18,833 bases of DNA, from the UHGV virus genome UHGV-0152950. One strand, 5' to 3'. Shown here piece by piece: positions 3,215 to 12,617 of this stretch; the first letter of the stretch is position 1; every line of letters begins with the position of its first letter. Under the pieces are notes generated by a model. That model saw nothing but the letters and a program-made list of their open reading frames with translations. It did no database searches and was not told the origin of the DNA. Position numbers and translations under genes: made by a program. This DNA comes from a virus.

Positions 3215-3868
3215 TCAAAGTATCACGGTATCTTCATCAACTTCTTTCCCAGCCAGTGACTTTGGCTGGGAGGTGCCTGCTTCAACTTTTTCATGCCCAA
3301 TAATGGACAGGAACGAAGCGAGTATGCCTGTTTTTTGCTCTTTCTCGACTGCGCCGGTCATCTGCTCTACGTAATCCGCACTGGCAACGTTGTGGTATAC
3401 GGTCGCGTAGCAACACAGGATCATAAGAATATGTTCCGGCCTGATGTCCTGCCAGTTCACCCGGTAGACTTCTTCTCCGTTACCATTGTATTCGGTATCA
3501 ACGATAGAGTCGGGGATTTCGAAAGCACCTTTGTTATTTTGCGGCAGGGATAATAGTTTCTGGAGTTTTAACTCTCTGTATCTTTCCATCCCGACGATGA
3601 TTGCTGCTCTACCATCGGCATGACGGGTCTTGAGAGTCACCTGACTTGCTCCGGTGCCAGCGGAGATCGTTGGCGTAATTTCGTCTACCAGTACCTTAAA
3701 TTTGCTTTTCCGCAGGGCTGCTATAGCTGGAGGAATTTTTTGCTTTTGCTCCAATGCTGACGCGGGAAGGGGTTTTACTTCGTTAATAATGAGAGCACCG
3801 TCTTTCAGTATTGCAGTGAGCATTTGAGGCTTGCTGGTGGTCAGGCTGAATATTGCGATCTTTTCCAT
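3215..3868 (-). CDS. Hypothetical protein
   Basis: Strong SD GGAGGAAGG before the internal ATG at 3868 (MEKIAIFSLTTSK...). The longer ORF to 3910 lacks an SD. 217 aa, no recognised motifs. Confidence 0.7.
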   Translation of the reverse strand: MEKIAIFSLTTSKPQMLTAILKDGALIINEVKPLPASALEQKQKIPPAIAALRKSKFKVLVDEITPTISAGTGASQVTLKTRHADGRAAIIVGMERYRELKLQKLLSLPQNNKGAFEIPDSIVDTEYNGNGEEVYRVNWQDIRPEHILMILCCYATVYHNVASADYVEQMTGAVEKEQKTGILASFLSIIGHEKVEAGTSQPKSLAGKEVDEDTVIL

Positions 3869-3890
3869 TGTCCTTCCTCCACGGATGACG

Positions 3891-3916
3891 GATACAAAAA
3901 AAGGCCGCACATGGCG
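3891..3916 (-). other. GC-rich hairpin with flanking T-run, terminator-like, immediately upstream of a gene start
   Basis: ggccgc acat gcggcc with A7 on plus (T7 after the hairpin on minus). It sits between the hairpin-less divergent intergenic region and the start of CDS 3215-3868. Confidence 0.3.
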
Positions 3917-4136
3917 GCCTGCTTTGGCGTTATGACTCCCTACCGCGCTTCGGCTGAAAGTTAATCGTCAAAAGAACCTTCAACGGGAGCCGTTAGCGCG
4001 ATGGATTATGTGCAGTTTGTGATTTCCAAAATAGTGTCAACCACTTTTTGTGGATTTTATTTTTTGACCGAAATTTGGCCTAAATCATGTTGATGTAGTT
4101 AATTGTTTTTATAACATAAAACTTCATTTTGTTTAC

Positions 4137-4760
4137 ATGAAGGATGGTGTAGTGAAGTTAAGGGTTTTAGGGGCCGCGCTCGCGGCTATGTTGGGATGCG
4201 TATCTGCTAATACTGCCAATGCAACTGCGTTACCTGCACAATTCAGGGCAGGGCAGCAGGTTATGAATAACGCTGGTGGGGATCATTCACAAGCGGCCAT
4301 TATGGACTTTTGCAAGAGGGAGGGCATTCCATTACGGCCTGTTGGAACTCAGTTTATTGGTAAAACTGACTTTTGCGTTTTTGCATATACAGCATATCTG
4401 ACGGACAAAGCTATAACAAAAACAGGTTATTCAACCAAAGATACTCTTTCCAGATTAAGTCAGGGATGGCAGCAATTCGAAGTGTATCGCCAGCAAGGAT
4501 TAGGTGAGTTATTGCAACCACTTTTTATGCTTGCGTTGGTGCCAGAGGGGCAGCAATTTTTGGTTAAAAAGGGAATGCTTCGCCAAAGTGATATTGCCGG
4601 GTTCGATAGCATGATGGCTTATGAGCGCAAACTAACCGAGCAGCGAAATAAAAAACCATCTGCTTCATGTGTGCAAAGTAAAACAGCAGAATACAGTGCA
4701 GTAGCCGGGCCTTTAGCCAAACAAATGGCAGAGCAATGGTGTAAAAAATACGGGCAATAA
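4137..4760 (+). CDS. Hypothetical secreted/periplasmic protein (Sec signal peptide)
   Basis: 207-aa ORF. Signal-peptide-like N-terminus ...KLRVLGAALAAMLGCVSANTANA. The alternative GTG start at 4152 has a better SD (AAGGA). Confidence 0.7.
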   Translation: MKDGVVKLRVLGAALAAMLGCVSANTANATALPAQFRAGQQVMNNAGGDHSQAAIMDFCKREGIPLRPVGTQFIGKTDFCVFAYTAYLTDKAITKTGYSTKDTLSRLSQGWQQFEVYRQQGLGELLQPLFMLALVPEGQQFLVKKGMLRQSDIAGFDSMMAYERKLTEQRNKKPSASCVQSKTAEYSAVAGPLAKQMAEQWCKKYGQ

Positions 4761-5540: not shown

Positions 5541-6482
5541 TTAACTAACAATCCAGTCCATAGCAATAACATCCTCTGGAGCTAAATCAATAGCATGGAT
5601 TTTCCCGTCACGGATGGTGCGCCAGTGCTTTCGTGATCCACCTTCGGGCCACACCCATATACCTTCAGGCCAGGAAGAACGACGACACACTGTTGCGTAT
5701 CCAGTCCTGAGCTTCTCTCTGACGGTATGTAGTGACAGATTATCCTTTGGGCTTTCAGGCACAGGATGGTGGATTGCCTGAAACATCCCCATCTTTGGAT
5801 GATACCAGCGTTTATTGCGTGGTTCTGCCTCCGACATCACCTGCTTAAAGGCTTTCCGGAAGGGGGCCAGGGCCACAATGGAGCGTCGCGCAAGCAAACC
5901 ATCTGGAGTTAAAAACTCATGCGTATCGGTGGGAATCCGGAAAGCGTTAACCAGGTTGCGACATTTGGCTTCAGTCAGGCCACATTTCGCCGCCAGCTGG
6001 CGGTAGCCAATGTAGCCTTCCGGAATATTGCCTTTCTTTATTTGCTCGAGTGTTTCAGCGACCATCGATACTTGTGCTGATACCTCGGCTACCTGGGCAT
6101 TTACGGCGTTGATCCGGCGTTCATGCTCAAGATGCATTTGCGCCATTTCAGCCAGAATTTCGGCTTTTGATTTTAACTGTACCCGGGCATTCTCCAGTTC
6201 GCGCCAGCGGTCCACCAGCCGGGCGGTGAATTCCGGAGAGAGCTGCGCGACGACAATGATGCTGTCTCGTTTTCCTTGTTCGCCTTCAAAGATGTAAGCC
6301 TTGGAAAATCGACGAGGGCCAACTGATTGTTTATTTTCAATTTCCACAGATTGTGGAAATTGGATCACACTCTTTTTAGCCAGTGTTTCGATAGTTCTCT
6401 TCACACTATCTGGGCGACTTCCTACCAGTTCCGCGATCTCAATACTGGTCATTGTCGCTTTTTGAGAGATGGACAGATTCAT
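5541..6482 (-). CDS. ant: Phage antirepressor, Rha/Ant family
   Basis: 313 aa. N-terminal MTSIEIAELVGSRPDSVKRTIETLAKK resembles the Rha regulatory-protein domain. Its ATG overlaps the stop of the upstream Icd-like gene (ATGA), as in the P1 immI icd-ant arrangement. Confidence 0.75.
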   Translation of the reverse strand: MNLSISQKATMTSIEIAELVGSRPDSVKRTIETLAKKSVIQFPQSVEIENKQSVGPRRFSKAYIFEGEQGKRDSIIVVAQLSPEFTARLVDRWRELENARVQLKSKAEILAEMAQMHLEHERRINAVNAQVAEVSAQVSMVAETLEQIKKGNIPEGYIGYRQLAAKCGLTEAKCRNLVNAFRIPTDTHEFLTPDGLLARRSIVALAPFRKAFKQVMSEAEPRNKRWYHPKMGMFQAIHHPVPESPKDNLSLHTVREKLRTGYATVCRRSSWPEGIWVWPEGGSRKHWRTIRDGKIHAIDLAPEDVIAMDWIVS

Positions 6483-6697
6483 CAGTGCACCTCCACGCAG
6501 TTCATCGGCAGATTCCAGTAATTGAGGATCTCCATCGCATCAAGAGTGAAGCGAGCAGCAAAAATGCAGGGTTCTTCGGGAAGGTATGAGCGCGCTTCTG
6601 CTTCGGTTGCAGCCATGACGCAGATATACAGGTGTTTTTGGCAGGAATAGAAACGCCAGATAAATTCAGAATGAGTTGGGGTAGGGGTAGTAGCCAT
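6482..6697 (-). CDS. icd: Icd-like protein (host cell division inhibitor family)
   Basis: 71-aa ORF MATTPTPTHSEFIWRFYSCQKHLYICVMAATEAEARSYLPEEPCIFAARF... resembles the Icd-like family from memory. Perfect SD AAGGAGG upstream; translationally coupled to ant. Confidence 0.6.
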   Translation of the reverse strand: MATTPTPTHSEFIWRFYSCQKHLYICVMAATEAEARSYLPEEPCIFAARFTLDAMEILNYWNLPMNCVEVH

Positions 6698-6754
6698 AAT
6701 GGCAGCCTCCTTTTGCTAATTTAAGGAGCTACCGCGTGAGGTTCCAATCTCAAT

Positions 6755-6835
6755 GGCGGTAGCACTGACTGGGTTGGAACTACCGGCGCAAAAGGGAACC
6801 GGCCTGCCTTTCGGCAGCCCAGCCAGCACTACCAT
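6755..6835 (-). ncRNA. Candidate C4-like antisense RNA (boundaries uncertain)
   Basis: Minus-strand hairpins GGCUGCC-GAAA-GGCAGGCC and GGUAG-(loop UUCCAACCCAGUCAGUG)-CUACC. The loop GUUCCAA is complementary to UUGGAAC upstream (about 6930) and just before the icd SD (about 6745). The RNA could instead be the 6883-6960 hairpin plus terminator. Confidence 0.3.
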
Positions 6836-6882
6836 TGATCTCTGAGCTAAACGCTACGTATGGCTGTGCGATGGCATGACAC

Positions 6883-6904
6883 AAAAAAAGACGCTTTCGG
6901 CGTC
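6883..6904 (-). terminator. Rho-independent terminator (minus strand)
   Basis: Hairpin gacgc tttcg gcgtc (6890-6904) followed on minus by a U7 run (plus A7 at 6883-6889). Confidence 0.5.
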
Positions 6905-7009
6905 TGTGTCGCCTTTTGCATTATCCGGGGTTCCAATCCCGGCACCCGTTTTTCTAAGGTGCCGTAGAAATATACCCCACGATAATGCCAGGGCGCAACA
7001 GTCAGTATT

Positions 7010-7177
7010 TTATGCTTTGGCGGATTTCTTCCGGGCTTGCTTGCAGGCGTAGGCCATTGCTTTAGCTTTCACTTCATCCAGCTTCCCGGTGATCACTTCT
7101 TTTCCGAGAGTGACAAACCAGTCATAGCAACCGCCAGTGATGTTCTGGATTTGAAAGTTGAGGTAGCGAACGGTCAT
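7010..7177 (-). CDS. Putative small protein (55 aa) with basic C-terminus
   Basis: Not in the ORF track. Hand translation MTVRYLNFQIQNITGGCYDWFVTLGKEVITGKLDEVKAKAMAYACKQARKKSAKA, with a G-rich SD-like sequence upstream. The overlapping plus ORF 7037-7255 lacks signals. Confidence 0.35.
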   Translation of the reverse strand: MTVRYLNFQIQNITGGCYDWFVTLGKEVITGKLDEVKAKAMAYACKQARKKSAKA

Positions 7178-7508
7178 TTTGACACCCCCAGCGCGAGTAA
7201 AGAATGCAGATTATCGCGTGAGTGGCGGACAACGAGTGATGGGAAAAGACAGTAGCTGTTCATAGTGTAGTGACTCCTTGCTTTCGGAGCCGCCATCGAC
7301 TGTTCCACGGTCTGGTGGCGGCGCAATAAAGGCTGGAACACCGTGAGTCAACGGGGGCTTTTCAGCCACCTATATTGCACCGCCATTGGTATGGCGGCGG
7401 CAATCATACGAAAAACTAAATAGTTTGTCTCAAAAAGTTGACCGGTGTGCCAATGGGTAGTGAATGTACATCGGAGCATTTTTCAATTCAACTTAAAATG
7501 TTAGAAAA

Positions 7509-8087
7509 CTAATTTATCAATTCAATCGCCATCTGATACAACGCCATTTCATCGGCATTGTGCCGCATGAAATCTGCTTTTCCGCCTATTTTTCCGTCAG
7601 CATGAACAGGGACCAGCCAGGGATATTGTTCTCGGACCTCGGCTGGCGCTGCGTACTGGTGGTGCCATTTACACAAAGGGAGGACATATTTATGCGCGTT
7701 CTCTGCCGTTCTCCCGAAGATATGGTGCAGGGATACCACTGGGCTATGTTGCCCGTGAATATGGCAGGCAATGCAGGGGAGAGTACCGATAGCGGTCTGT
7801 ATCCGGCGTTCATCGGCTGTGAGTGATCTGCCCTTCAGGCCGCGTGACGTGCGTGTTTTTTTGGACGGAGTGGATACAGCTTTCTCTTTTCTCCGCTGGT
7901 CATATTGCTTTGCTTTTTCAATTCTCTTTTGCCGATATTCAGGCGATGCGGCTTTTTCTCTCGCTCGTTGCTGCTGGCGTTGAGCTTGTTGAAGGCGCTT
8001 TGCCCTTTGTTCCTCTCGCCAGGCTGGGTCAGCCAATTTTTGCATGGCTTTTTGTCTCTGTTTCTCCCAATAGCTCTGTTTCTGCAT
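7509..8087 (-). CDS. ref: Ref-like recombination enhancement function protein (HNH-type nuclease)
   Basis: 192 aa. Highly basic low-complexity N-terminus, then Cys/His core CIACHIHGQHSPVVSLHHIFGRTAENAHKYVLPLCKWHHQ typical of P1 Ref-family HNH proteins. Confidence 0.7.
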   Translation of the reverse strand: MQKQSYWEKQRQKAMQKLADPAWREEQRAKRLQQAQRQQQRAREKAASPEYRQKRIEKAKQYDQRRKEKAVSTPSKKTRTSRGLKGRSLTADERRIQTAIGTLPCIACHIHGQHSPVVSLHHIFGRTAENAHKYVLPLCKWHHQYAAPAEVREQYPWLVPVHADGKIGGKADFMRHNADEMALYQMAIELIN

Positions 8088-8136
8088 GATGGCTGCCTCT
8101 TACTTTTCAGCTATTTTTCTATGATTGATCTAAATG

Positions 8137-8164
8137 GTTAGATATTCAAAATTGATTTTCTAAC
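8137..8164. promoter_or_regulatory. Operator-like palindrome GTTAGA-N16-TCTAAC overlapping a sigma70-like promoter (-35 TTGATT)
   Basis: gttagatattcaaaattgattttctaac. The -35 TTGATT (8152-8157) lies inside the palindrome, with TAATAT about 16 nt downstream. A near-identical 28-bp site occurs at 11238-11265. Confidence 0.4.
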
Positions 8165-8207
8165 ACAAAACATTAATATCATTCCTGATAACTGTTTGGA
8201 GGACATG

Positions 8208-8360
8208 ATGCTTATAGCTTTAAGTGCGATCCACCAGCCATCTGTGAATGAGATTGGCCTGTTCTATGTGTTGTTTTTCGGGGCGCTGGCGCTACTTGAG
8301 CTTGGTATTGAGCTTTTCGCAGTGCTTATGTTTTGCGTCACGATTTTGGGGAAATTTTGA
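8208..8360 (+). CDS. Putative small membrane protein (about 50 aa), translationally coupled to the next gene
   Basis: Not in the ORF track. SD GGAGG at 8198-8202 before ATG 8205/8208. Product MLIALSAIHQPSVNEIGLFYVLFFGALALLELGIELFAVLMFCVTILGKF. Its stop TGA overlaps the ATG at 8360 (TGATG). Confidence 0.35.
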   Translation: MLIALSAIHQPSVNEIGLFYVLFFGALALLELGIELFAVLMFCVTILGKF

Positions 8361-8983
8361 TGGTGAAACGTGTTTTGAAAATTTACATCGCGGGGCCGAT
8401 GACTGGTTATCCAGACTACAACCGTGCGGCGTTTAATGCGAAAGCGAGCGAGCTGATGTCTGAAGGGCATATCGTTCTGAATCCAGCTGTGTTACCTGGT
8501 GGCCTTTGTCAGAGTGAATACATGGATATTTGCCTGGCAATGGTGCGTTCTGCTGATGCTATCTATCTGCTTAAGGGCTGGGAAGCGTCCGCAGGAGCAC
8601 GAGCAGAACACGCCCTGGCTGAAAAACTGGAGCTGACGGTAATTTATGAAGCGCCATCTGACACAGATTGCAGAATGGCAGCGCATATTTACCGCGAACT
8701 GGTCGATGCGTTACGTGATGTTGCTATTGAATGTCACGGCACGGATCAGCTTCGCGCTCGCTTAAGCAATACCCTTTCCAGTTACCTGTCTTTAGCCGAA
8801 GGATACAACCTCCGACAGCGGAGAATGGTCAAATTAATCACGCGTTTATCTCAATCCCTGGCAAATGCCGAACCAACTAATCCGCTACCTAATGACGCAA
8901 TGAATTATCTGAAGTCATGCGGCGTTGTTTCTGAAGATGCAGTTCGTTTTGTGGAGTTTATGTCTCAGAGGATGTCGGCGTGA
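8360..8983 (+). CDS. DUF4406-like protein (nucleoside 2-deoxyribosyltransferase-like fold) with C-terminal extension
   Basis: ATG 8360 chosen; the track start at 8333 is a TTG. N-terminal KIYIAGPMTGYPDYNRAAFNAKASELMSEGHIVLNPAV...LLKGWEASAGARAEHALA matches the DUF4406 pattern from memory. Confidence 0.7.
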   Translation: MVKRVLKIYIAGPMTGYPDYNRAAFNAKASELMSEGHIVLNPAVLPGGLCQSEYMDICLAMVRSADAIYLLKGWEASAGARAEHALAEKLELTVIYEAPSDTDCRMAAHIYRELVDALRDVAIECHGTDQLRARLSNTLSSYLSLAEGYNLRQRRMVKLITRLSQSLANAEPTNPLPNDAMNYLKSCGVVSEDAVRFVEFMSQRMSA

Positions 8984-9297
8984 GCTGGCGGGGATGGGGA
9001 AGGGCAGAAATCATGATACTCCGCCAGTGCGCCGGAACTATGACGGTCGAGAGTATCGGGAAGCTGATCGGTCGTACCGGTGATGCCGTCAGGACTAAAG
9101 CGCGAGAGCTGGGGATCAGAATGATTCTGAAAGGTGACTTTCACCAGTCAGCCAAATATCGGCAGAGCGATATAGAGCTGGCGCGGCAGCTTCATCAGTG
9201 CGGTGTTCCCCGCCGTGAGATCGCAGAAAAACTCGAAATGCCCCTGGGCATGATTAATCAGTACGTTTATTTCGAAAGGAGAGTGCATGAAGTCTGA
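8980..9297 (+). CDS. Small putative DNA-binding (HTH-like) protein
   Basis: GTG 8980 overlaps the upstream stop (GTGA); alternative ATG at 9013. Segment MTVESIGKLIGRTGDAVRTKARELGI looks HTH-like. Confidence 0.6.
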   Translation: MSWRGWGRAEIMILRQCAGTMTVESIGKLIGRTGDAVRTKARELGIRMILKGDFHQSAKYRQSDIELARQLHQCGVPRREIAEKLEMPLGMINQYVYFERRVHEV

Positions 9298-9721
9298 AGG
9301 TTTAACGCCAGAGCAACTGGCGGAGCGTAACGCTCAGTATGTGACGGAAATTTTCCGTCTTGAGAAAGAGCGCGCGGCGCTGGCGGCGGAGAATGCAGGG
9401 CTAAAGGCGATATGTGATGACTGTCGCAGGTTCATCATGAATGGGGTGCAGATGGGTTATGTCAAGGTGCCAACAGCGGAAACAGATCCAGACCTTGAGA
9501 CAATACGTATTGCTATATCACCACAAAAGCCCATTCCAGCCACCGATGCTTTCCTGGCTGAAGTACGGGCGCAGGGGGTAGAGATGTACGCAGATAACCT
9601 CGACAACGGAGCAGACGACGCAGAACGAGGTGGTTTTGATTATGCCGTTAAGTTTCTACGCAGTGAAGCGTCTAGTGTACGTTTGTTCGCCGACCAGCTT
9701 CGCAAAGGAGGCAGCCAGTGA
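9287..9721 (+). CDS. ead/Ea22-like family protein
   Basis: SD AAGGAG 6 nt before ATG. C-terminal TDAFLAEVRAQGVEMYADNLDNGADDAERGGFDYAVKFLRSEASSVRLFADQLRKGG is shared almost exactly with CDS 12604-13197. Confidence 0.8.
   Translation: MKSEGLTPEQLAERNAQYVTEIFRLEKERAALAAENAGLKAICDDCRRFIMNGVQMGYVKVPTAETDPDLETIRIAISPQKPIPATDAFLAEVRAQGVEMYADNLDNGADDAERGGFDYAVKFLRSEASSVRLFADQLRKGGSQ
9536..9720. repeat. Direct repeat copy 1 (about 185 bp, 2 mismatches versus copy 2)
   Basis: Aligned by eye to 13011-13196. Covers the 3' coding end of an Ea22-like gene plus the SD and start codon of the next gene. Confidence 0.85.
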
Positions 9722-9993
9722 ATATCGACACGACAATAACGATCGATACGCTCCTAAATTCCGGTCTGGCACTTCTCGGTTGGCTTTACATCATGTTCAG
9801 TGCGGGGAAGTGGGCGGCCTCTGTTTTTCTAAAGCAGTGGGGAAAGCGCCGCAAACAGGAGAGACGCCAGAAAGCGTTAGAGGCGTTCTATGACGCATTT
9901 GAACTTAGCCGCATTGAGCCTGGCACAACAGCCAGGATAGCGACAAAAGGCGACCTGATGATAGTGATGTTCAGACAGGAGAAAACAAAATGA
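9718..9993 (+). CDS. Small membrane protein
   Basis: GTG start overlapping the upstream stop; SD AAGGAGG. One hydrophobic helix LLNSGLALLGWLYIMFSAG followed by a basic segment. Confidence 0.6.
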   Translation: MNIDTTITIDTLLNSGLALLGWLYIMFSAGKWAASVFLKQWGKRRKQERRQKALEAFYDAFELSRIEPGTTARIATKGDLMIVMFRQEKTK

Positions 9994-10214
9994 CAGAACA
10001 GACGATGACAAATCGCGAACTTGTTGATGCCGCGATTGAACTTGCTGGCGATTTTTATTCCATGATGGGTTACGAGCATCGACCTGGTTTTAAGTATTGG
10101 GAGTCACCGCATCCGCAAGAACAACAGGTGTTTGAAATGGCCTGCCGTGCTTTTGAGGTTATTCGCGGTTCTGATGTGATGGATGCCGTTGCCGACTTGG
10201 AGGATGAAGAGTGA
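9990..10214 (+). CDS. Hypothetical protein
   Basis: ATG overlaps the upstream stop (ATGA); SD-like CAGGAG; 74 aa, acidic C-terminus. Confidence 0.65.
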   Translation: MTEQTMTNRELVDAAIELAGDFYSMMGYEHRPGFKYWESPHPQEQQVFEMACRAFEVIRGSDVMDAVADLEDEE

Positions 10215-10522
10215 GCATCATTAAAGAAATGCCGGTAGAACGTGATGAATATGGCTGCTGGACACATCCGGAGTATGAAAAGTTTTGCGCAGGTCGTGAA
10301 TATATATCCACTGAGGAATTTGACGCCTGGATGAAGGAAAATAATCTTCAGTGGACTATTCGCAGTATGGATGAAGATGATTTTGATCTGGACGCAGCTG
10401 GTCCCGATATTGCCGCCTGGGAACCGGAGCGACCAGAGGGTGAAGGCTGGTTTGTTGGCTCTATTCATGACACTGAAGATGGTCCAGTTTGTATCTGGCT
10501 GCGGGAGAAGGTTGCCGCATGA
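10211..10522 (+). CDS. Hypothetical protein
   Basis: GTG start overlapping the upstream stop; 103 aa. Confidence 0.6.
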
Positions 10523-11211
10523 TCCAGGCTATGCATGAAGTGAATTTATATAGCCGTATTGATGGTTCTGGCTACAGAAACATATGGGTAGTTGGTGATC
10601 TGCATGGTTGCTACACCAGACTGATGTCCGAACTCCATCGTGTGGATTTTGACCCGGCGCAGGATTTACTGATATCGGTTGGCGACCTTATCGATCGCGG
10701 TACTGAAAATGTCGAATGTCTGGAACTATTGCAGATGCCCTGGTTCAGGGCAGTAATGGGGAACCATGAGCGGTTGATGCTTGATGCGTTAAGTCCTGAT
10801 GGCAACGTGAATAACTGGCTAATGAATGGCGGACAATGGTTCTTCATGCTGGACACTGATCAGGAAATATTAGCCAAGGCGCTGGTGGAGCTGGTAAAGC
10901 GTCTGCCATATATCATTGAGTTGAACACCGGACATGAAACTATCGTTATAGCCCATGCCGACTATCCAGGTGGAGAGTACCAGTTCGGTAAGGATGTATC
11001 GCTTTTTGATGTTGTCTGGTCGCGCAGTCGCGTCGGTGATTCGATAGATGGCATTGGTGGAGAAATCACAGGCGCAGATCGCTTTATCTTTGGGCACACA
11101 CCGGTACGAAGACCAAAAGCATACTGGAATCAGCACTACATAGACACGGGCGCGGTTTTTTGTGGAAATCTGACGCTAATGCAGGTGAAGGGAGGGCAGC
11201 TTAAAGTCTGA
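10519..11211 (+). CDS. Serine/threonine protein phosphatase (lambda PPase / PrpA-like metallophosphoesterase)
   Basis: Motifs GDLHGC, GDLIDRG, GNHE and IAHADYP present. ATG 10519 overlaps the upstream stop; the track start at 10489 is a TTG. Confidence 0.9.
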
Positions 11212-11237
11212 TCAAATCATTTACGCACTCAAAATGC

Positions 11238-11265
11238 GTTAGAATATTGATTTTAGTTTTCTAAC
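11238..11265. promoter_or_regulatory. Second operator-like palindrome GTTAGA-N16-TCTAAC overlapping a promoter (-35 TTGATT, -10 TATTTT)
   Basis: gttagaatattgattttagttttctaac. TTGATT at 11247-11252 and TATTTT 17 nt downstream. Lies in the only sizeable intergenic gap of the plus-strand array, upstream of the DUF968 gene. Confidence 0.4.
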
Positions 11266-11308
11266 ATATTATTTTACCACTCGGAACAAAACAGAGTCGG
11301 TATGCATT

Positions 11309-12304
11309 ATGAGTGCAATAATCACCCCATATGTCGTAAATGAAACTGGTGTGGCTGTCTTTCCGGTAGACAAGCCCACCAGCAACTACATCGGCGCAGG
11401 TCGCCGTTTCATTATCTCACCACTTCCGCGAGAACAGGCTGAAAACACTCCAGATGGCGTAGTGGATCTGAATTATTCGCTGGTTGCCAACCAGTCGCTG
11501 AAACCATTTTTTCAAAGCGAGCGCGTATTTAACGCGTTAGGCGGTGAAGATTCGCTTGTTCATTGGGTAAGTTCCAATATCCACGATTGCCAGGCGCACG
11601 ATAAGCGCGATTGCAGCCACCAGCTAACCACTCATTTCTATAACGGCTCTGCCGTTCGCCTGTGCTGGAAGCATGATGCGGAATACATGATGAAGGGGTA
11701 CAGCAAGCTGGACGACCAGTTATCCCTGAATCGCGCCAACTGGGTTATGAACTGGGCTGCGAGCGAGTTAAAACTACCGCCAGAACGCGATCTGAGCATG
11801 GTTGAACTCACTTTTTGGGCCATTCGCCGGAATCTGAAAGATGAGCTGCCAGATGAAGCCGGGCGCATTGCATTTTGTCAGCCAAAAACTGAAATCCCTA
11901 CCGGTGCGCTGAAAGAATCAGATATCACCTGGGAGCGCAGTACGCGCGAGCTGGTGGACATAACCGCAGAGCAGATCGTCAACCTGTCTGTAGATGAGGA
12001 TTCTGGCCTCCTATATATGCGCCGTCCAAAAACCTTACTCGGAAAAAGCCCGGCTTATCTCCGCTTTGTGGTTTCTCGTCCGTGCATCGGATGCGGTGGC
12101 AAAGTTAACCACCCGTTCATGTACCGCGCCCGCTCGTTAAACGAACACGACCGCTGGGCTGTTCCTCTTTGCGATGACTGCGCCAGAAGCGCAGAACACG
12201 ATGTCCGGGCATGGGAAAAAGCACATGGCATACGCCTTTATGTAGTCGCTAACCAGCTTTTCGACTTCGCCATCGAGCGCGGAGTGATCACGTTTAATAA
12301 CTGA
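11309..12304 (+). CDS. DUF968-like prophage protein with C-terminal Cys/His (HNH-like) cluster
   Basis: 331 aa. C-terminal CIGCGGKVNHPFMYRARSLNEHDRWAVPLCDDCARSAEHD resembles DUF968 proteins of lambdoid nin-type regions (from memory). Confidence 0.75.
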   Translation: MSAIITPYVVNETGVAVFPVDKPTSNYIGAGRRFIISPLPREQAENTPDGVVDLNYSLVANQSLKPFFQSERVFNALGGEDSLVHWVSSNIHDCQAHDKRDCSHQLTTHFYNGSAVRLCWKHDAEYMMKGYSKLDDQLSLNRANWVMNWAASELKLPPERDLSMVELTFWAIRRNLKDELPDEAGRIAFCQPKTEIPTGALKESDITWERSTRELVDITAEQIVNLSVDEDSGLLYMRRPKTLLGKSPAYLRFVVSRPCIGCGGKVNHPFMYRARSLNEHDRWAVPLCDDCARSAEHDVRAWEKAHGIRLYVVANQLFDFAIERGVITFNN

Positions 12305-12317
12305 TGGGAACAACGCA

Positions 12318-12617
12318 ATGAGTCAAGGTAACGGTGACGGAGCTGCAAAGTGCAGAATCTCCACTTGTTTGATTAATGGCAGAAAAATAGAACCGTGCGC
12401 GGCGCTGGCACAATCTCTGGAGCAGGATGCTGAATACACGACGCGAAAAGGCCTGCTGAAATACAAAGTCTATAACCATGAATTAATTCATTCACAGGAC
12501 CTGATCATGCTGCGGTCTGGTGAATTTTCTAAATCGCCTATTCGAGTTTCATTTTGCCCATTCTGTGGTGAAAGTCTGAAAACGTGGGAAGCGGAGGCAA
12601 CCAGTGAGCAAAATTAA
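12318..12617 (+). CDS. Small Cys-containing (zinc-ribbon-like) protein
   Basis: 99 aa with CRISTC ... CPFCG pairs; weak SD. Confidence 0.55.
   Translation: MSQGNGDGAAKCRISTCLINGRKIEPCAALAQSLEQDAEYTTRKGLLKYKVYNHELIHSQDLIMLRSGEFSKSPIRVSFCPFCGESLKTWEAEATSEQN

Follow-up and report, generated by a model that had tools for sequence, protein, structure and literature searches.

The palindrome at positions 11238-11265 of the window (the whole stretch of 18,833 nucleotides analysed here), hereafter site 2, is probably a pair of asymmetric operators for the prophage repressor C1 of the phage D6 type, placed on the promoter of an accessory operon; we give this reading a probability of around 80%. We infer C1 as the ligand from the position of the sites, from homology and from co-occurrence, and propose from sequence comparisons that the functional unit would be an asymmetric operator of ca. 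21–23 nt rather than the 6-nt half-site.

The window is part of a D6-like phage-plasmid of the P1 family: over positions 7000-12500 it shares 95% identity with Escherichia phage D6 and 99.3% with the E. coli plasmid CP125036, the closest plasmid. The c1 gene itself lies outside the window; the C1 encoded by CP125036 shares 97% identity with that of D6, and the motif described below is found 14 nt upstream of the c1 gene of this plasmid. Site 2 is located within the 97-nt gap that separates a ppp-like gene from a DUF968 gene, whose counterpart in D6 is orf98, annotated as 'similar to P1 pdcB'. A second palindrome, site 1, is found between ref, on the minus strand, and the rightward orf88/DUF4406 operon, which begins near position 8206. 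The genes and RNAs that matter for the argument are the following:

3215-3910, minus strand: mat, left neighbour of an operator-like site at 4102-4124
4137-4760: simB-like gene, right neighbour of the same operator-like site
5541-6962, minus strand: immI-like leftward unit, to the left of ref, comprising the next four features
5541-6482, minus strand: antirepressor gene (Ant in the D6 annotation; weak match to Pfam Phage_pRha)
6482-6697, minus strand: icd-like gene (icd in the D6 annotation)
6752-6839, minus strand: C4 antisense RNA (Rfam C4, 76.7 bits)
6884-6962, minus strand: isrK-like RNA (Rfam isrK, 62.5 bits), just upstream of the icd-like and antirepressor genes
7509-8087, minus strand: ref, RecA-dependent nuclease gene (Pfam RecA_dep_nuc, E = 8.5e-35)
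10489-11211, plus strand: ppp-like metallophosphoesterase gene (Pfam Metallophos, E = 5e-16), the last gene before site 2
11309-12304, plus strand: DUF968/pdcB-like gene (Pfam DUF968, E = 1.2e-44), the first gene past site 2

The D6 annotation places a second immI-like module elsewhere in that genome. Some of the related plasmids carry insertions in this gene order: CP125036 has a transposase between gene 26 and mat (L006 16180-17388), and CP028585 has a gene for TnpB, of the RNA-guided endonuclease family, between the orf96-like gene and ppp (L008 3179-4387).

The initial annotation had described site 2 as the second copy of a GTTAGA-N16-TCTAAC palindrome, and this copy is indeed exact. Site 2 reads gttagaatattgattttagttttctaac and site 1, at 8137-8164, reads gttagatattcaaaattgattttctaac; these are the two exact matches in the window, against 0.01 expected, and none of 200 shuffled sequences contained two or more. 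The bare hexamer GTTAGA/TCTAAC is not enriched, with seven occurrences in the window against 6.1 expected, and it is likewise not enriched in D6, so that the signal resides in the longer motif and in its pairing. Allowing up to three mismatches in a loose 15-mer produced no overall excess either, and only matches with none or one mismatch were informative. An A/T-rich palindrome that arose by chance and has no function would suit the A/T-richness of intergenic DNA, as well as the ordinary frequency of the hexamer, but it would not account for two exact copies, for their conservation within diverged flanks, or for the confinement of the motif family to intergenic DNA (12 of the 14 copies of TCTAACA in D6, a genome that is 90% coding). 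We thus regard a chance origin as effectively refuted.

It had also been proposed that the two sites share an internal TTGATT. The hexamer is common to both, but it occupies positions 16–21 of the 28-mer at site 1 and positions 10–15 at site 2; being out of register, it is not a shared internal element of the palindrome. It is, instead, the best −35-like hexamer at both sites.

The palindrome halves are each part of an asymmetric motif that extends over about 21–23 nt, approximately ATTrGTTTTCTAACAyAwww. For scoring, we used a main matrix of 23 nt, built from 12 intergenic TCTAACA sites of D6, in which the scores of its own sites are circular and whose seeds were picked by their TCTAACA core, and an independent matrix from the nine D6 sites located beyond the part of D6 that is homologous to the window, which addresses this circularity only in part. 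Five operator-like sites were found in the window by matrix. The palindrome cores and the individual candidates are listed here with their scores in the main and the independent matrix, in this order:

4102-4124, plus strand: weaker operator-like site, ATTGTTTTTATAACATAAAACTT; 20.0 and 18.5; between mat and the simB-like gene
7491-7513, minus strand: candidate single (monovalent) operator, ATTAGTTTTCTAACATTTTAAGT; 27.0 and 23.4; overlaps the 3' end of ref
8128-8150, minus strand: left-hand candidate operator of site 1, TTTGAATATCTAACCATTTAGAT; 12.1 and 11.5; weak; overlaps the predicted ref promoter
8137-8164: palindrome core of site 1, 28 bp; a conserved island with diverged flanks in the relatives L007 and L009
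8151-8173, plus strand: right-hand candidate operator of site 1, ATTGATTTTCTAACACAAAACAT; 29.1 and 27.5; overlaps the predicted rightward promoter
11229-11251, minus strand: left-hand candidate operator of site 2, ATCAATATTCTAACGCATTTTGA; 14.6 and 15.4; weaker, abuts the right copy head-to-head
11238-11265: palindrome core of site 2, exact GTTAGA-N16-TCTAAC, 28 bp
11252-11274, plus strand: right-hand operator of site 2, TTTAGTTTTCTAACATATTATTT; 30.3 and 27.9; strong candidate

In 200 simulated windows scored with the independent matrix, the 95th percentile was 16.6 and the maximum 19.9. The right-hand operators of sites 2 and 1 and the single site at 7491-7513 (27.9, 27.5 and 23.4, respectively) all exceed this maximum, and the site at 4102-4124 (18.5) lies beyond the 95th percentile and under the maximum. 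On its own, the left half of site 2 (15.4) stays under the 95th percentile and that of site 1 (11.5) is unremarkable, yet both exactly adjoin a strong site. Because the left halves are weak here outside the GTTAGA, with main-matrix scores of 12–15, the right half may account for most of the action of each pair. The related stretch aaaatgttagaaa that had been pointed out at 7493-7505 is present, and it turns out to be part of the full-length minus-strand copy of the motif at 7491-7513. At the weaker site, TAACAT (4112-4117) lies 16 nt past TTGATG (4090-4095), and the operator core may double there as a −10 hexamer.

The same motif occurs throughout the D6 genome. The palindrome, with none to two mismatches, appears at three more places in D6: upstream of hrdC-dmt, where it forms a near-perfect palindrome of 42 bp, between repL and icd/ant, and beside pmgS. 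All five D6 pairs, which were not chosen by any spacing pattern, are built alike, with a minus-strand operator directly followed by a plus-strand operator, so that their 5' ends meet at the dyad. Single copies of the extended motif exist in D6 as well, for instance 14 nt ahead of the start codon of c1 and at the ref 3' end. In all, there are about 16 matrix matches, located upstream of c1, lpa, repL, pmgS/R, hrdC-dmt, pdcB and orf117-dut, within the icd/ant (immI) module, and at mat/simB, ref and the ref 3' end. The weaker ones, immediately in front of lpa, in front of repL and between mat and simB, are all intergenic; since the best score in shuffled genomes, usually 12–15, occasionally reaches 19, these are persuasive mainly by their position. 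A conserved GGTTTTCTAAAyrAATTGACAA is also found about 100 nt upstream of c1 (L002 = D6, 111-133; L133 and L134, around 5886-5908), with a weak operator-like score of 9.6 and overlapping a perfect TTGACA −35 hexamer; it may represent the c1 promoter with a second autoregulatory site.

A promoter had been postulated at site 2, with a transcription start just downstream, and a sigma-70-like promoter is predicted there. A permissive hexamer scan gave four candidate promoters at the candidate operators, each with 8 of 12 consensus positions:

11247-11275, plus strand: predicted promoter of the DUF968 operon; −35 TTGATT (11247-11252), 17-nt spacer, −10 TATTTT (11270-11275), start near 11282
8152-8179, rightward: predicted promoter of the orf88/DUF4406 operon; −35 TTGATT (8152-8157), 16-nt spacer, −10 TAATAT (8174-8179)
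8149-8121, leftward: predicted ref promoter; −35 TTGAAT (8149-8144), 17-nt spacer, −10 AATCAT (8126-8121)
7525-7498, leftward: predicted promoter of the isrK-C4-icd-ant unit; −35 TTGAAT (7525-7520), 16-nt spacer, −10 TAACAT (7503-7498)

A stricter promoter scan, with a threshold of 9/12, called none of the four, and neither it nor a terminator scan made any call at site 1 or site 2. In all four predicted promoters, TCTAAC is placed in the spacer or forms the −10 hexamer; that of the DUF968 operon, about 35 nt upstream of the gene, contains it within the 17-nt spacer, and its −10 region is conserved in all relatives.

This arrangement suggests how the sites could work. C1 bound to the pair at site 2 (ca. 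11229-11274) would cover the −35, the spacer and the −10 of the predicted sigma-70 promoter, and would occlude RNA polymerase in the plasmid prophage, keeping the DUF968/pdcB-led accessory operon silent; once C1 were inactivated, for instance by the immI antirepressor, the operon would be expressed. Site 1 would do likewise for the divergent ref and orf88/DUF4406 promoters, and the single site at 7491-7513, which probably controls the leftward C4-icd-ant operon, for the isrK-C4-icd-ant unit. One protomer of C1 would presumably bind each operator. As there is no leftward gene at site 2, its left operator would most plausibly strengthen the occupancy of the pair.

Alternatively, the inverted repeat of site 2 could work in the RNA, where a weak intrinsic terminator or a processing hairpin would end the ppp-containing transcript ahead of the DUF968 gene. 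The corresponding RNA folds with −9.5 kcal/mol (z = −2.4 against shuffled sequences) and is followed by a U-rich UAUUAUUUU; nevertheless, its stem is A/U-rich with bulges. The motif, moreover, is also found in single, non-palindromic copies, and between genes that diverge (at site 1 and upstream of c1), where no read-through transcript is expected. Relatives, in turn, conserve the DNA motif rather than base pairing, with changes in the left half that are uncompensated in the right half. A role as an RNA hairpin is thus very unlikely. As to a rho-independent terminator in the strict sense, we rejected this candidate: in place of a G+C-rich stem followed by a U run, there is an A/U-rich stem of −9.5 kcal/mol, which the terminator scan did not call.

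Comparisons among relatives give what we consider a clear phylogenetic footprint of both pairs. At site 2, D6 and four plasmid relatives all retain GTTAGA, the inner TTGATTTTA and TTTTCTAACA without change. A Shigella dysenteriae plasmid, which is 84% identical around site 2, and a plasmid of E. marmotae keep both pairs with the same geometry, and both halves score 19–28 in them, with flanks that have diverged or contain a 32-nt insertion. The homologues of the left halves score 19–20 (site 2) and 22–28 (site 1) in L007 and L009; as they are strong in these relatives, the weak left halves of the window reflect the recent decay of a once symmetric pair. Among the loci retrieved from IMG/VR, 41 of 42 pairs were abutting, although they were fetched with a fixed-gap pattern and so cannot serve as evidence for a constant spacing; the pattern scan of IMG/VR also gave many chance matches. 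The regulatory role at operon boundaries that the initial annotation had put forward gains support both from these conserved islands and from the genome-wide family of intergenic sites in D6.

Other conserved stretches lie close to the pairs. The 33-nt leader at 11276-11308, from the predicted −10 to the start codon of the DUF968 gene, has hardly changed, even in the Shigella plasmid of 84% identity, in which the DNA upstream of site 2 has diverged and carries the 32-nt insertion. Beside site 1, all relatives preserve CTATGATTGATC (8119-8130), with its GATC Dam site, within diverged surroundings; this stretch coincides with the predicted ref −10 hexamer, and methylation might affect the predicted ref promoter.

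Which protein reads these sites was approached through the homologous repressors. D6 C1 is 21% identical to P1 C1 in Blastp comparisons (E = 2e-8), and the two differ in length, with 345 aa in D6 and 283 aa in P1; both match phrog_1678 (E = 3e-170 and 3e-140, respectively). No Pfam domain was found in D6 C1, and no sequence relative of it in the PDB. The type of operator follows that of C1: the motif precedes c1 in elements with a C1 of 68–70% identity to that of D6, and it is retained over the range of 68–100% C1 identity, whereas no D6-type site was detected in 30 kb of a Leclercia plasmid whose C1 is 30% identical, nor in the 20 kb of P1 that were checked and that hold at least 12 P1-type operators. 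Conversely, searches for P1-type operators (ATTGCTCTAATAAATTT, up to four mismatches) gave no convincing match in the 91-kb D6 genome or in the window. Judging from these sequence comparisons, the D6-type sites would define an immunity specificity different from that of P1/P7. Together, the P1-like positions, the homology of the repressors and the tracking of C1 type by the motif lead us to assign the motif to the D6-type C1.

In 30.5 kb of the P1-like Leclercia adecarboxylata plasmid pE1_003 (L011), there are 12 Chi sites (GCTGGTGG). A GAGTGATCAC motif recurs in this plasmid, and a sequence resembling it, GTGATCAC, precedes its c1; this motif may be the operator of the pE1_003 C1 type. In the Salmonella Typhi plasmid pK91 (L134, 7884-12858), a D6-like c1 region is found beside IS26, ISKpn19 and qnrS1. 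This plasmid, typed as conjugative IncFIB and with a truncated pacB-like gene, gives the impression of a D6-like element, remnant or chimeric, that carries quinolone resistance.

The sites could, alternatively, be operators for another phage-encoded dimeric protein that reads the two-fold symmetric GTTAGA-N16-TCTAAC, for which the small 'DNA-binding protein' of the rightward operon, the orf72 regulator or a Cro/Coi-like factor would be candidates. The two-fold symmetry and identical spacing of the five D6 sites, the 42-bp palindrome at hrdC and the several DNA-binding proteins annotated nearby would all fit such a regulator. However, about half of the strong sites are single and asymmetric (among them those preceding c1, pmgS and orf52 and the one at the ref 3' end), the genes under control correspond to the C1 regulon of P1, and the TCTAA core and layout are those of the P1 C1 operator, in addition to the co-variation of motif and C1 type across elements. 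We therefore consider another regulator unlikely, and C1 the preferred ligand.

Likewise, P1-family late promoters consist of a short repeat and a −10 hexamer, and the site is intergenic, so that one might think of an Lpa-dependent late promoter element comparable to the inverted repeat at −22 of the P1 late promoters. This is extremely improbable, because the −22 boxes of P1 have AAGTGACTT-like sequences wholly unlike the motif, which precedes immunity and early genes (c1, lpa, repL, icd/ant) and not those for head or tail.

Returning to C1, its D6-type form might have an architecture undescribed for P1, in which long operators arranged head-to-head, each carrying promoter hexamers (ATTGAT as −35, TAACAT as −10), constitute a portable promoter-operator cassette that places acquired mosaic accessory arrays under prophage repression; or else the symmetric sites might be read by another dimeric regulator that shares half-sites with C1. 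We see either as rather unlikely.

Operators of the D6 type belong to a known kind, the dispersed asymmetric C1 operators of P1-family prophages, to which site 2 adds a variant pair geometry and no new principle of regulation. Neither of the two D6 GenBank records annotates the D6-type operator sequence or its head-to-head pairing, and a full-text literature search for D6 operators or for the motif string returned nothing relevant; the D6 genome paper lay outside this search, so an earlier description is possible. E. coli, Salmonella and Shigella commonly harbour D6-like phage-plasmids, some of them with resistance genes: more than 100 PLSDB plasmids cover at least 80% of the region and 149 carry a relative of C1. 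The operator of the master repressor would define a D6-like immunity group distinct from that of P1, and predicts which genes should be silent in the prophage and turned on at induction, namely ref, the DUF4406-to-ppp array, the DUF968-led array and the antirepressor module. The sites are also ready-made for reporters, ChIP and the engineering of an orthogonal repressor-operator pair. While not surprising, the assignment is useful for the annotation of a widespread group of phage-plasmids.

Lambdoid CI/Cro operators resemble the D6-type sites in that a prophage repressor acts on operators of palindromic appearance over early promoters. They differ in the distance between half-site centres (about 10 bp, against about 22 bp here) and in being clustered in OL/OR, whereas D6-type sites are spread genome-wide and full-strength single half-sites exist alone. 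Moreover, D6 C1, with no Pfam domain found, is not of the lambda CI family.

The resemblance to P1 is much more extensive. The C1 repressor of P1 has 22 asymmetric 17-bp operators, with the consensus given above, and repL and lpa are among its targets (PMC8546580); ref, ban, ssb, dmt and kilA are also among the P1 genes under C1 control (PMC4713147). The P1 record annotates Oc1a-e, Olpa, Oref, Omat, OpmgRa/b and others. In both phages, asymmetric operators are dispersed in many copies over a P1-family plasmid prophage, and the D6 sites are found at corresponding places: c1, lpa, repL, immI, ref, the ref 3' end, mat, pmgR/S and dmt. Omat of P1, for example, overlaps the end of ref, as does the candidate operator at 7491-7513. 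The operators cover the −35 hexamer or fall within the spacer of the promoter, as illustrated by P2ref/Oref of P1, in which the operator occupies the spacer. Both share a TCTAA core, a 5' ATTG/ATTA and an A/T-rich 3' tail, although the D6 motif is longer: three bases are added between ATTr and TCTAA, and TCTAA is followed by a C.

The closest parallel to the pairs is the bivalent operator Oc1ab of P1 (formerly Op99a/b), the sole P1 bivalent operator that we inspected, where two inverted C1 operators also form an imperfect palindrome at a promoter; its length, also 28 bp, is a coincidence. In Oc1ab, the A/T-rich 3' tails of the two 17-mers share 6 bp, giving the order TCTAA...TTAGA, whereas in the D6-type pairs the 5' ends abut without overlap, in the order TTAGA-N16-TCTAA, and the pair spans ca. 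42–46 bp in all. The analogy with the bivalent sites of P1 is thus inexact, because the relative orientation of the two operators in Oc1ab is the opposite of that in the D6-type pairs.
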